A program made the position numbers and the translations under genes. A stretch of 64,000 bases of DNA from Escherichia coli (GTDB lineage: Bacteria; Pseudomonadota; Gammaproteobacteria; Enterobacterales; Enterobacteriaceae): NCBI RefSeq assembly GCF_003334305.1, contig NZ_QOWS01000009.1; one strand, given 5' to 3'. Below, one piece after another: positions 15,681-46,252 of the stretch; position 1 is the stretch's first letter, and every line of letters starts with the position of its first letter. The notes beneath the pieces were generated by a model. That model made no database searches. It saw nothing but the letters and a program-made list of their open reading frames with translations, and was not told the origin of the DNA.

Positions 15681-16316
15681 TCTTCTGAATCACCGGGCGA
15701 AAAAATATAACTGAGTTACAAATAAGTACCAGTCGAATGAGTATTGTATTAAGAATTTTTGAGTATCGCTGATACAACCAGAAAGCAATGCTAGCGCAAT
15801 ATTATAGGGCCAGCAATTGAGATTATTAGCAAAAGCATGTTAAGAATTAATTACCGAATTTATATATTAATTATAGTAAGGCAATGAGCTATTTTTGATA
15901 GTAAAAATAAAACAAGTTGATTTGATATATTAAATGAACAAATTAATCTTGATGGCAGTCTGATTATTGGTGAAGTTTATAGTCAGTTTTTTTCGCCAGC
16001 GGTTAAAGAAATAGAATAGTCGTATAAAAAAGGGTGTTCTGGGGCGAGTAAAACAACATCTTCACCTTAATGGCGATACAGTTGGCTGAGAGTCAGCAGG
16101 GGGGCAAATCACCTGCAAATAAACACGGCGCATACTGGCGTGAATATCGCGGATGCGTTCGAGGACAGAAGAACCGACAGGCGGATTCTTCAGCCGCTCA
16201 TCGTCCATCACAAAACCTTAGACCAGGTATTCCTGAAGCCGATTGAATATTGAGCAGTAGAAAATATCTGGATTGACAGTATTACAAGGGGTTGGAGAAC
16301 GTCAGGAGAGGCATTT

Positions 16317-16411
16317 TGGCGGAAGATCACAGGAGTCGAACCTGCCCGGGACCGCTGGCGGCCCCAACTGGATTTGAAGTCCAGCCGCCTCACCGGAGAC
16401 GACGATCTTCC
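16317..16411 (-). tRNA. selC: tRNA-Sec (selenocysteine tRNA, UCA anticodon)
   Basis: Reverse complement reads GGAAGATCGTCGTCTCCGGTGAGGCGGCTGGACTTCAAATCCAGTTGGGGCCGCCAGCGGTCCCGGGCAGGTTCGACTCCTGTGATCTTCCGCCA, a 95-nt match to E. coli selC with encoded CCA. Confidence 0.97.
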
Positions 16412-25175: not shown

Positions 25176-26042
25176 ATGAAAAAGCGTCGGAAGGAACCGG
25201 AAACGCTACGTGAACACTGTCGCCATATTTTTGGTGATGAGCCGCCAGTGCTCTGTGTATGGGAAACGGAATTTGATTACGCAGATGCCGAACTCAAGGC
25301 GCTGGCGGCTAAAGAGTGGCAGCAGATCAGCGTATGGGATTTGAGTGCTTACTATGTACTCAATCTCGTTTATAACGAACCGATGCAAATAGATTTGTTT
25401 CGCTATCTGTTTCCGCTCTGCCTGGCGCAATGGCATGAAACCGTTTTAGCTGGCGGTTATGGTGATCACTTCGAAGAATCCTTAATGAAGGCATTGTGTC
25501 GGCCCTATCTCTGGCAGGAGATGATGAATGCTTCCCAACGCCAGCAGGTACGGCAATTTTTACTGGACACCGCGTTGCAGCGTATGGATAACGAGCGTGG
25601 TTTCAATAACGTTCTTTGCTGGCTGGCGGTGTTCAATACTCTGGGTGGGGCCGCGCCGTTAATTCGTTCTCTCTGGTCGCGCTGGTGGGCGCTGGATACG
25701 CCAGGAAAAGCGGTGTGTGCTATTCAGTATGCCGCGCATCTAATTTATCCCATAGAAGCCAATCCGTTATGGTCGCAAGAATGGATAGGCTGGGGGCATC
25801 CATTAGGCCATAAAGATGGCTGGTCCTCTGATAATCGCGCTTTTCTTCGCCAAATGTTAACACCTGAAATGATTGTGGCTGGCGTACAGGCAGCGGCTGA
25901 AATTCTGCGTGGTGAACCGGAAGGCGCAATGGCGGCGCGAATTGCACAGGATGCGTATGAGGCAATGGATATCCTCACTATCCAGATTGAAGATTTACTG
26001 CGTGACTTGTCTTGTGATGAGTCTGGTCATGCGTTGGAGTAA
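25176..26042 (+). CDS. Uncharacterised Trp-rich cytoplasmic protein (hypothetical)
   Basis: 288-aa ORF with ATG 3 nt after gltS stop; no TM helix or signal peptide; 13 Trp; host-like codon usage; 3' end overlaps recG 3' end by 16 nt; no recognisable family. Confidence 0.6.
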   Translation: MKKRRKEPETLREHCRHIFGDEPPVLCVWETEFDYADAELKALAAKEWQQISVWDLSAYYVLNLVYNEPMQIDLFRYLFPLCLAQWHETVLAGGYGDHFEESLMKALCRPYLWQEMMNASQRQQVRQFLLDTALQRMDNERGFNNVLCWLAVFNTLGGAAPLIRSLWSRWWALDTPGKAVCAIQYAAHLIYPIEANPLWSQEWIGWGHPLGHKDGWSSDNRAFLRQMLTPEMIVAGVQAAAEILRGEPEGAMAARIAQDAYEAMDILTIQIEDLLRDLSCDESGHALE

Positions 26043-36644: not shown

Positions 36645-36770
36645 AGACGTTCCTGTTTATAAAAGGAGAGGTGGAAGGATTATAGCCATCGATGCCTTGT
36701 CAGGATAGGAATAACCGCCGGAAGTCCGTATAATGCGCAGCCACATTTGTTTCAAGCCGGAGATTTCAAT

Positions 36771-37487
36771 ATGCGTCCAGCAGGCCGTAGCAATAATCAG
36801 GTGCGTCCCGTTACCCTGACTCGTAACTATACAAAACATGCAGAAGGCTCGGTGCTGGTCGAATTTGGCGATACCAAAGTGTTGTGTACCGCCTCTATTG
36901 AAGAAGGCGTGCCGCGCTTCCTGAAAGGTCAGGGCCAGGGCTGGATCACCGCAGAGTACGGTATGCTGCCGCGTTCTACCCACACCCGTAACGCTCGTGA
37001 AGCGGCGAAAGGTAAGCAGGGTGGACGCACAATGGAAATCCAGCGTCTGATCGCCCGTGCTCTTCGCGCGGCAGTAGATTTGAAAGCGCTGGGTGAGTTC
37101 ACCATTACGCTGGACTGCGACGTGCTTCAGGCTGATGGTGGCACTCGTACCGCGTCGATTACGGGTGCCTGCGTGGCGCTGGCAGATGCGCTACAGAAGC
37201 TGGTGGAAAACGGCAAGCTGAAAACCAACCCGATGAAAGGGATGGTAGCCGCAGTTTCTGTCGGAATTGTGAACGGCGAAGCGGTTTGCGATCTGGAATA
37301 CGTTGAAGACTCTGCCGCAGAGACCGACATGAACGTAGTGATGACCGAAGACGGGCGCATCATTGAAGTGCAGGGGACGGCAGAAGGCGAACCGTTCACC
37401 CACGAAGAATTACTCACCTTGTTGGCTCTGGCCCGAGGGGGAATCGAATCCATTGTAGCGACGCAGAAGGCGGCGCTGGCAAACTGA
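36771..37487 (+). CDS. rph: Ribonuclease PH, apparently intact full length
   Basis: 238 aa from ATG preceded by GGAG ([26 protein letters not shown]...); runs without frameshift to the stop just before the pyrE attenuator. Confidence 0.95.
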
Positions 37488-37492
37488 TTTTT

Positions 37493-37520
37493 AAGGCGAC
37501 TGATGAGTCGCCTTTTTTTT
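37493..37520 (+). promoter_or_regulatory. pyrE attenuator (intrinsic terminator hairpin plus U-tract)
   Basis: AAGGCGAC-tgatga-GTCGCCTT followed by T8, 6 nt after rph stop and 33 nt before pyrE ATG. Confidence 0.8.
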
Positions 37521-37552
37521 GTCTGTAGAAAAGTAAGATGAGGAGCGAAGGC

Positions 37553-38194
37553 ATGAAACCATATCAGCGCCAGTTTATTGAATTTGCGCTTGGCAAGCAG
37601 GTGTTAAAGTTTGGCGAGTTTACGTTGAAGTCCGGGCGCAAAAGCCCCTATTTCTTCAACGCCGGGCTGTTTAATACCGGGCGCGATCTGGCACTGTTAG
37701 GCCGTTTTTACGCTGAAGCGTTGGTGGATTCCGGCCTTGAGTTCGATCTGCTGTTTGGCCCTGCTTACAAAGGGATCCCGATTGCCACCACTACCGCCGT
37801 GGCGCTGGCGGAGCATCATGACCTTGACCTGCCGTACTGCTTTAACCGCAAAGAGGCAAAAGACCACGGTGAAGGCGGCAATCTGGTTGGTAGCGCGTTA
37901 CAAGGACGCGTAATGCTGGTAGATGATGTGATCACCGCCGGAACGGCGATTCGCGAATCGATGGAGATTATTCAGGCTAATGGCGCGACGCTTGCTGGCG
38001 TGTTGATTTCGCTCGATCGTCAGGAACGGGGGCGCAGCGAGATTTCGGCGATTCAGGAAGTTGAGCGTGATTACAACTGCAAAGTGATCTCTATCATCAC
38101 CCTGAAAGACCTGATTGCTTACCTGGAAGAGAAGCCGGAAATGGCGGAACATCTGGCGGCGGTTAAGGCCTATCGCGAAGAGTTTGGCGTTTAA
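37553..38194 (+). CDS. pyrE: Orotate phosphoribosyltransferase
   Basis: 213 aa from internal ATG ([23 protein letters not shown]...) of ORF 37538..38194; PRPP motif [13 protein letters not shown]. Confidence 0.97.
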
Positions 38195-38201
38195 AGAAAC
38201 T

Positions 38202-38225
38202 CGCCGGATGAAAAGTCATCCGGCG
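38202..38225. terminator. Bidirectional hairpin between convergent pyrE and slmA
   Basis: CGCCGGATGA-aaag-TCATCCGGCG perfect palindrome. Confidence 0.6.
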
Positions 38226-45094: not shown

Positions 45095-45144
45095 CAGTGC
45101 GGTATCAGTATTCAGGTAGCTGTTGAGCCTGGGGCGGTAGCGTG
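45095..45144 (+). promoter_or_regulatory. JUMPStart-like element containing the ops site (GGCGGTAGCGTG) in the waaQ leader
   Basis: TCAGGTAGCTGTTGAGCCTGGGGCGGTAGCGTG with ops at 45133..45144, about 50 nt upstream of the waaQ start. Confidence 0.75.
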
Positions 45145-45193: not shown

Positions 45194-46252
45194 GTGGATA
45201 AGCCATTTCGAAGAATTTTGCTCATTAAGATGCGTTTTCATGGGGATATGTTATTAACTACTCCCGTCATTAGTTCGCTGAAAAAAAATTACCCTGACGC
45301 AAAAATCGATGTGCTGCTTTATCAGGACACCATCCCGATCCTGTCTGAAAATCCAGAGATTAACGCGCTCTACGGCATAAAAAATAAAAAAGCAAAAGCC
45401 TCAGAAAAAATTGCCAACTTTTTTCATCTCATCAAGGTATTACGTGCCAATAAGTATGACCTTATCGTCAATCTTACCGATCAATGGATGGTTGCTATAC
45501 TGGTTCGCTTATTAAATGCCCGTGTGAAAATTTCCCAGGATTATCATCATCGGCAGTCTGCTTTTTGGCGTAAAAGTTTCACCCATTTGGTGCCGTTGCA
45601 GGGTGGAAATGTGGTGGAAAGTAACTTATCCGTGCTGACACCATTGGGACTTGATTCGTTGGTGAAGCAGACAACCATGAGTTACCCGCCTGCAAGCTGG
45701 AAACGTATGCGTCGCGAACTTGATCACGCTGGTGTTGGACAAAATTATGTGGTTATCCAACCTACGGCGCGGCAAATCTTCAAATGCTGGGACAACGCCA
45801 AGTTTTCCGCTGTGATTGATGCCTTACATGCTCGTGGTTATGAAGTCGTTCTGACGTCCGGCCCAGATAAAGACGATCTGGCCTGCGTCAATGAAATTGC
45901 GCAGGGATGCCAGACGCCACCAGTAACGGCGCTGGCTGGAAAGGTGACCTTCCCGGAACTTGGTGCGTTAATCGATCATGCGCAGCTGTTTATTGGCGTT
46001 GATTCCGCACCGGCGCATATTGCCGCTGCAGTTAATACGCCGCTGATATCGCTGTTTGGTGCGACAGACCATATTTTCTGGCGTCCCTGGTCAAATAACA
46101 TGATTCAATTCTGGGCGGGAGATTACCGGGAAATGCCAACGCGCGATCAGCGTGACCGAAATGAGATGTATCTTTCGGTTATTCCGGCGGCAGATGTCAT
46201 TGCTGCTGTCGATAAATTACTGCCCTCCTCCACGACAGGTACGTCGTTATGA
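45194..46252 (+). CDS. waaQ: LPS heptosyltransferase III WaaQ
   Basis: 352 aa from GTG; GT9; conserved N-terminal RRILLIKMRFHGD requires a start upstream of the first ATG. Confidence 0.88.
   Translation: MDKPFRRILLIKMRFHGDMLLTTPVISSLKKNYPDAKIDVLLYQDTIPILSENPEINALYGIKNKKAKASEKIANFFHLIKVLRANKYDLIVNLTDQWMVAILVRLLNARVKISQDYHHRQSAFWRKSFTHLVPLQGGNVVESNLSVLTPLGLDSLVKQTTMSYPPASWKRMRRELDHAGVGQNYVVIQPTARQIFKCWDNAKFSAVIDALHARGYEVVLTSGPDKDDLACVNEIAQGCQTPPVTALAGKVTFPELGALIDHAQLFIGVDSAPAHIAAAVNTPLISLFGATDHIFWRPWSNNMIQFWAGDYREMPTRDQRDRNEMYLSVIPAADVIAAVDKLLPSSTTGTSL

Follow-up and report, generated by a model that had tools for sequence, protein, structure and literature searches.

An intact rph gene upstream of the pyrE attenuator in an Escherichia coli genome from outside the MG1655/W3110 lineage

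The window, a stretch of 64,000 nucleotides from Escherichia coli (assembly GCF_003334305.1, contig NZ_QOWS01000009.1), harbors an rph-pyrE pair flanked by yicC and dinD on one side and by slmA, dut, and coaBC on the other. The rph coding sequence (36771–37487) lies on the + strand, as do all features of the pair described below, and comprises 238 sense codons, from the ATG at 36771 to the TGA at 37485–37487. The list of open reading frames also contains a longer version of this frame that begins at a TTG (36747). The ATG is the annotated start in the 100%-identical records of strains E24377A and A7, and the match to TIGR01966 in an NCBIfam profile search begins at residue 2 of the resulting product.

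The product is a full-length RNase PH. Its residues 2–236 cover positions 1–235 of the 236 positions of TIGR01966, an equivalog profile, with 380.8 bits against a curated cut-off of 141.5 bits. The initial annotation had described an rph frame unbroken for 238 codons, and the run from ATG to TGA together with the full profile coverage bears this out. Residues 2–237 align with residues 3–238 of the Pseudomonas RNase PH structure 1R6L (E = 3.7e-104); the alignment includes the last 15 residues, which are the ones altered or lost in the rph-1 allele, and the region of the C-terminal helix is intact. A 901-nt segment containing all of rph (36700–37600) is 100% identical to many complete E. coli genomes, including E24377A and A7, in which the rph coding sequence is recorded as WP_001247093.1. 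A consensus promoter scan upstream of rph found nothing; a TATAAT is present at 36729–36734, without a good −35 hexamer at 17 nt.

The pyrE attenuator follows the rph stop codon as a hairpin with a 9-bp stem and a 4-nt loop (37493–37514), located by terminator scan and by folding. Its core arms, GGCGAC (37495–37500) and GTCGCC (37507–37512), pair with each other, and flanking A-U pairs extend the stem to 9 bp. The adjoining T8 tract (37513–37520) completes the intrinsic terminator that the scan detects at the rph-pyrE junction, and the first two of its T residues also pair inside the extended stem. The hairpin folds at −14.7 kcal/mol compared with −3.5 ± 1.8 kcal/mol for shuffled sequences (z = −6.2), none of the 200 shuffles being as stable. 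The hairpin and T8 tract named in the initial annotation are thus both recovered, while the distance of 6 nt given there from the stop codon to the hairpin needs correction. The 7-nt sequence TTTTTAA (37488–37494) separates the TGA from the GGCGAC arm, and the gap between the TGA and the extended stem is 5 nt. The rph stop is therefore no further than one ribosome footprint from the hairpin's 5′ arm. The intervening U5 run (37488–37492) is a candidate UTP-sensitive slow-down site, a role suggested by the published mechanism.

The attenuator matches no Rfam family; the two Rfam matches in the window, tRNA-Sec and JUMPstart, are both located elsewhere. Folding of the segment 37440–37560 yields no structure that competes with the terminator. 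The sole other hairpin in this segment lies upstream, inside rph (~37453–37482), and does not compete, so an alternative antiterminator structure was rejected. The lack of a competing structure in this segment fits a model in which the ribosome itself serves as the antiterminator.

The pyrE coding sequence (37553–38194) comprises 213 codons and a stop and encodes orotate phosphoribosyltransferase, as identified by TIGR00336 (239.3 bits, cut-off 106.8) and by the identical records. A Shine-Dalgarno sequence, GAGGAG (37540–37545), is positioned 7 nt before the ATG, as it is in MG1655. The pyrE ATG follows the T tract after 32 nt, and a consensus scan of these 32 nt, which can miss weak or non-sigma-70 promoters, revealed no promoter-like site. 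Transcription of pyrE would therefore depend on read-through of the terminator. Beyond pyrE, a 10-bp GC-rich hairpin (CGCCGGATGA...TCATCCGGCG, 38202–38225) is located between the convergent pyrE and slmA genes and looks like a bidirectional terminator shared by the two.

Positions 36740–37560 of the window (821 nt) were aligned to the same stretch of MG1655 (NC_000913.3). The two sequences differ by 10 substitutions in rph and by one gap. The gap is a single G, such that the window carries GGGGG at 37437–37441 and MG1655 carries GGGG; the G5 run is the site of the one-base deletion that constitutes rph-1 in MG1655 and W3110, and it is intact here. Only two of the rph differences are non-synonymous (A138V and T216I). 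Five substitutions fall within the last 100 nt of the gene, between 37395 and 37420 (GAA/GAG, CAC/CAT, GAATTA/GAGCTA, and ACC/ATC). From 37442 to 37560, a segment that includes the end of rph, the stop codon, the hairpin, the T tract, and the ribosome binding site and start of pyrE, the alignment contains zero differences.

The consequences for the protein follow from the reading frame. The MG1655 product departs from the window sequence after ...LALARG, continues with ESNPL, and ends at 228 aa, spanning only positions 1–221 of TIGR01966, whereas the window product has 238 aa. By frame arithmetic, the premature stop of the rph-1 frame is the TAG at 37456–37458, which is out of frame and unused in the window and lies 29 nt upstream of the wild-type TGA. 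The truncated K-12 product is without RNase PH activity (PMC11148124). The initial annotation had stated that MG1655 carries the rph-1 frameshift truncating RNase PH and that the present strain appears to be rph+, and it proposed alignment with MG1655 rph as the check. The alignment locates the 1-bp difference near the 3′ end of the gene (G5 versus G4), confirms the frameshift and the 228-aa product in MG1655, and finds that the rph-1 frameshift, named beforehand as the outcome that would speak against the claim, is absent from the window. At the level of its sequence, the strain is rph+. A K-12 derivative with a repaired rph was considered and ruled out by the 10 substitutions within 821 nt; the idea of a K-12 revertant also fails because the window is 100% identical to non-K-12 strains over 25 kb.

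The arrangement of stop codon and hairpin was compared across species. A degenerate pattern for the pyrE N-terminus, applied in one scan of species-representative genomes, returned 120 Enterobacterales loci (L012–L131), of which all but one are named as Enterobacteriaceae or Budviciaceae; the exception (L085) is labelled Chryseobacterium sp. 18061. Together with the window, 117 of these loci provide 118 scorable sequences. In 106 of the 118 Enterobacterales species, the core arm, [GA]GCG[AG]C, follows the rph stop after 5–7 nt, the full range being 5 to 12 nt; when the gap is taken to the outermost pair of the stem, it is 4 or 5 nt in 99 of 117. Downstream, the pyrE ATG begins 25 to 166 nt past the last T of the run across the 118 species. 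A fixed geometry between stop codon and hairpin, combined with a free downstream spacer, is what a model of translational coupling would predict.

Pairs in the stem were tallied over 82 unique sequences by a script that took the invariant GCG[AG]C / G[TC][CT]GC core as its anchor; a MAFFT alignment of 57 attenuator sequences was set aside, as it misplaced the 3′ arm of short-loop variants. The five core pairs are nearly invariant, and the pairs that flank them covary. The first flanking pair, beside the core, is G-C in 71, A-U in 5, and G-U in 6 of the 82 sequences; the second, further outward, is A-U in 61, G-C in 18, G-U in 2, and a non-pairing A/C in 1. The loop-closing pair, counted in the same set, is U-A in 45, C-G in 4, and G-C in 4. 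The T tract contains 6–9 T in 78 of the 82 sequences, and a run of at least four T is present in the spacer between stop and hairpin in 52. In Budvicia diplopodorum, the rph-pyrE spacer is 167 nt long, its GGCGAC...GTCGCC repeat is interrupted, and no T tract follows; its attenuator seems to have been lost or rebuilt.

Transcription past the intercistronic attenuator requires tight coupling of transcription and translation (PMC11148124), and UTP-sensitive pausing and attenuation control both pyrBI and pyrE (PMC7818426). According to PMC2784333, which cites Jensen 1993 and Bonekamp 1984, proper regulation of pyrE is obtained with the rph stop close to the attenuator loop, and the 1-bp deletion of MG1655 lowers orotate phosphoribosyltransferase. 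The rph-1 frameshift uncouples translation from transcription before the attenuator and thereby lowers pyrE expression (PMC2784333, PMC11148124, PMC7818426).

Applied to the window, this scheme would operate as follows. At low UTP, RNA polymerase would move slowly through the U-rich end of rph, with the U5 run at 37488–37492 as a plausible slow-down site, and the ribosome would remain close behind. Upon reaching the rph stop, the ribosome would cover the 5′ arm such that the terminator hairpin does not form and pyrE is transcribed. At high UTP, the polymerase would outrun the ribosome, allowing the hairpin to form and transcription to end. In the rph-1 frame, the ribosome would stop 29 nt earlier, short of the hairpin, and pyrE expression would be low.

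The occlusion step was modeled by folding. Toeprints place the edge of the mRNA covered by a ribosome at ~+15 from the first base of the P site. With the stop codon in the A site and the mRNA blocked to +15, the wild-type stop removes 5 of the 9 stem pairs, and the best hairpin weakens from −14.7 to −4.1 kcal/mol. In contrast, a ribosome at the rph-1 stop leaves the hairpin unchanged at −14.7 kcal/mol. The modeled contrast between wild type and rph-1 depends on the footprint assumed. Blocking to +12 at the wild-type stop changes the hairpin from −14.7 to −12.7 kcal/mol, a loss of just 2 kcal/mol, and the occlusion step is therefore suggestive rather than decisive.

The preferred reading, to which we assign a probability of about 0.93, is that the locus represents the rph-pyrE operon in its wild-type form, from a non-K-12 E. 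coli, with an attenuator governed by the ribosome as it finishes rph. Nothing in the sequence argues against it. UTP-sensitive pausing and occlusion of the hairpin by the ribosome are likewise expected in this strain, as are normal translation-coupled attenuation and normal expression of pyrE.

A variant of this reading keeps rph intact and proposes that attenuation differs quantitatively from that of K-12 rph+ strains, with substitutions near the 3′ end of rph changing pausing or ribosome speed. The five differences at 37395–37420, one of which is an amino acid change (T216I), might conceivably affect pausing or the local speed of translation. However, K-12 has the same 121 nt between the G run and the pyrE start, the geometry from stop to hairpin that is conserved across species is unaltered, and the haplotype of the window is shared at 100% identity by many independent natural isolates. 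Such a quantitative difference has only a slim chance of being real.

The frequency of the two alleles bears on whether the G5 run has been read correctly. An exact 80-mer of the MG1655 allele (rph-1) is found in 167 of 5,425 complete E. coli genomes. Sixty of these were listed, and all are K-12 laboratory lineages of 4.5–4.7 Mb; their names include MG1655, W3110, BW25113, J53, HMS174, MFDpir, and evolved or engineered derivatives. The corresponding 81-mer of the window has exact matches in 1,464 genomes. Among full-length non-exact matches, an even sample of 57 non-K-12 genomes was taken down the match ranking, and all 57 span 81 nt in the subject and hence contain five G. Because all 57 sampled matches have this length and the rph-1 80-mer is confined to 167 of 5,425 genomes, rph+ is, as judged from sequenced genomes, the normal state of E. 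coli (~97%), and rph-1 is an oddity of one laboratory lineage. Two K-12 strains from other lines of descent, JM83 and NCM3722, are also rph+ (PMC11148124, PMC4470420).

It might be argued that the intact frame of the window is a sequencing or assembly error in a homopolymer whose true state is GGGG. Runs of this kind are error-prone, and two isolated genomes without K-12 ancestry show the opposite state, G4, possibly through such errors. Against this stand the five G in every one of the 57 sampled genomes, the exact 81-mer in the 1,464 genomes, and the 100% identity of the 901-nt region to more than 30 independent assemblies, which leave the error hypothesis a very slight probability. There is next to no likelihood that the hairpin is a plain constitutive rph terminator, with pyrE transcribed from its own promoter and uncoupled from rph translation: intrinsic terminators soon after stop codons are common and the spacing in one genome proves little, but the pyrE ATG comes only 32 nt after the T tract, and the consensus scan found no promoter-like site in that gap. 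In addition, 106 of 118 species keep 5–7 nt between stop and hairpin despite a more than six-fold range in the spacer beyond the terminator, and published K-12 work has shown that pyrE expression is controlled by where rph translation stops (PMC2784333, PMC11148124).

Other genomes display several forms of variation at this locus. The window contains both intact copies of a 10-bp direct repeat, GCAGAAGGCG, the first at 37380–37389, which is one end point of a suppressor deletion in rph-1 strains, and the second at 37463–37472. An 82-bp deletion between the repeats recurs in evolved MG1655 as a suppressor of rph-1 (PMC2784333). Exactly this deletion is found in E. coli NBRC 3301 (locus L003, NZ_CP048439.1, 1150–1315), whose genome of 4.66 Mb is K-12-sized; its rph frame crosses the hairpin and ends at a TAG just past it, corresponding to 37526–37528 of the window.

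The loss of one G is observed in E. coli 2015C-3101, a human stool isolate with a genome of 5.3 Mb (locus L004, ~238–241), where it lies on a non-K-12 SNP background and the gene is annotated as 'frameshifted'. No other genome among the 5,425 of E. coli combines G4 with this SNP background. Kluyvera genomosp. 3 YDC799 (L079, CP022114.1) also has GGGG, and in both genomes the rph product ends in RGESNPL*. The G4 runs of 2015C-3101 and YDC799 may represent recurrent mutation or homopolymer sequencing error. Because the same one-G loss occurs on these unrelated backgrounds, the G5 run could be viewed as a recurrent frameshift hotspot that turns RNase PH off and pyrE down in natural lineages too, although we consider this unlikely. 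The window carries the unswitched G5 state.

The attenuator also varies among E. coli strains. At the equivalent of 37507–37520, loci L005–L008 differ in length: the T tract of PRO_A-1422 is T7 and that of SCEC020026 is T9, and a single C is missing from the 3′ arm in strains 1000C-3 and M15. The shortened arm forms a G-U pair, and the fold energy is still −12.0 kcal/mol. In E. coli 23CRST050 (locus L010, NZ_AP045825.1, ~1722–2431), an IS200/IS605-family element (tnpA, 1863–2321) is inserted in the T tract of the attenuator; the hairpin is intact, and pyrE is located ~0.7 kb away from it.

The trp, his, and leu attenuators resemble that of pyrE in that formation of an intrinsic terminator hinges on where a ribosome stands on the leader. 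In these systems, stalling of the ribosome senses charged tRNA, and alternative antiterminator hairpins are employed. In contrast, the signal at pyrE is the speed of the polymerase as set by UTP, and no alternative hairpin is needed. The coupling ribosome of pyrBI translates a short dedicated leader peptide, whereas that of pyrE finishes a full-length enzyme gene, rph. The pyrBI leader attenuator otherwise acts by the same principle: UTP-sensitive pausing there lets a translating ribosome stop the intrinsic terminator from forming; pyrBI differs in being controlled by reiterative transcription as well (PMC7818426).

The K-12 rph-pyrE operon, whose UTP-modulated intercistronic attenuator was described by Poulsen, Bonekamp, and Jensen in 1984–1993 (as cited in PMC2784333 and PMC10087573), occupies the same locus with the same gene order, yicC / rph-pyrE / slmA-dut-coaBC. 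No base differs between the G run and the pyrE start, the attenuator included. MG1655 and W3110 differ in carrying G4 (rph-1), while the window has the ancestral G5 (rph+) and 10 rph substitutions. With respect to the rph-1 allele, gene and attenuator are shared, but the window is without the 1-bp deletion and its product has 238 rather than 228 aa; its stop codon is 29 nt further downstream, beside the hairpin.

Several features elsewhere in the window were observed in passing. The tRNA-Sec gene selC (16317–16411, − strand) appears to be unoccupied by a genomic island; selC is a classic site of genomic-island integration. Beside it (~16077–16238), a 162-nt RhuM-family pseudogene fragment is annotated in the identical strain A7. 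Strains TUM1887, H15, and TUM12355, otherwise identical, contain an extra 9.5–11 kb within the stretch corresponding to positions 1–25000, with primase-helicase, AIPR, and DEAD-box genes. A 288-aa open reading frame (25176–26042, + strand) is located between gltS and recG and overlaps the 3′ end of recG, which is on the opposite strand, by 16 nt. It has no NCBIfam match and is annotated as 'hypothetical protein'. It counts as an accessory gene, being present in just 1,918 of 5,426 complete E. coli genomes. A JUMPstart RNA (Rfam RF01707, 55.2 bits; 45106–45144, + strand) is found just upstream of rfaQ/waaQ (~45194–46252). The waa genes annotated in A7 encode or comprise an O-antigen ligase, GT2, an alpha-1,2-galactosyltransferase, rfaY, GT8, and waaO, a set other than that of the K-12 core type.

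Since 1984–1993, both the attenuator between rph and pyrE and the rph-1 lesion have been textbook matter. The observation made here is correct, well understood, and ordinary; the cross-species tally of stop-to-hairpin distances adds a modest point. For the organism, the finding means that the window does not derive from the MG1655/W3110 lineage. The strain should be free of the pyrimidine pseudo-auxotrophy and RNase PH deficiency of MG1655 and W3110, defects that complicate work on physiology and tRNA processing.
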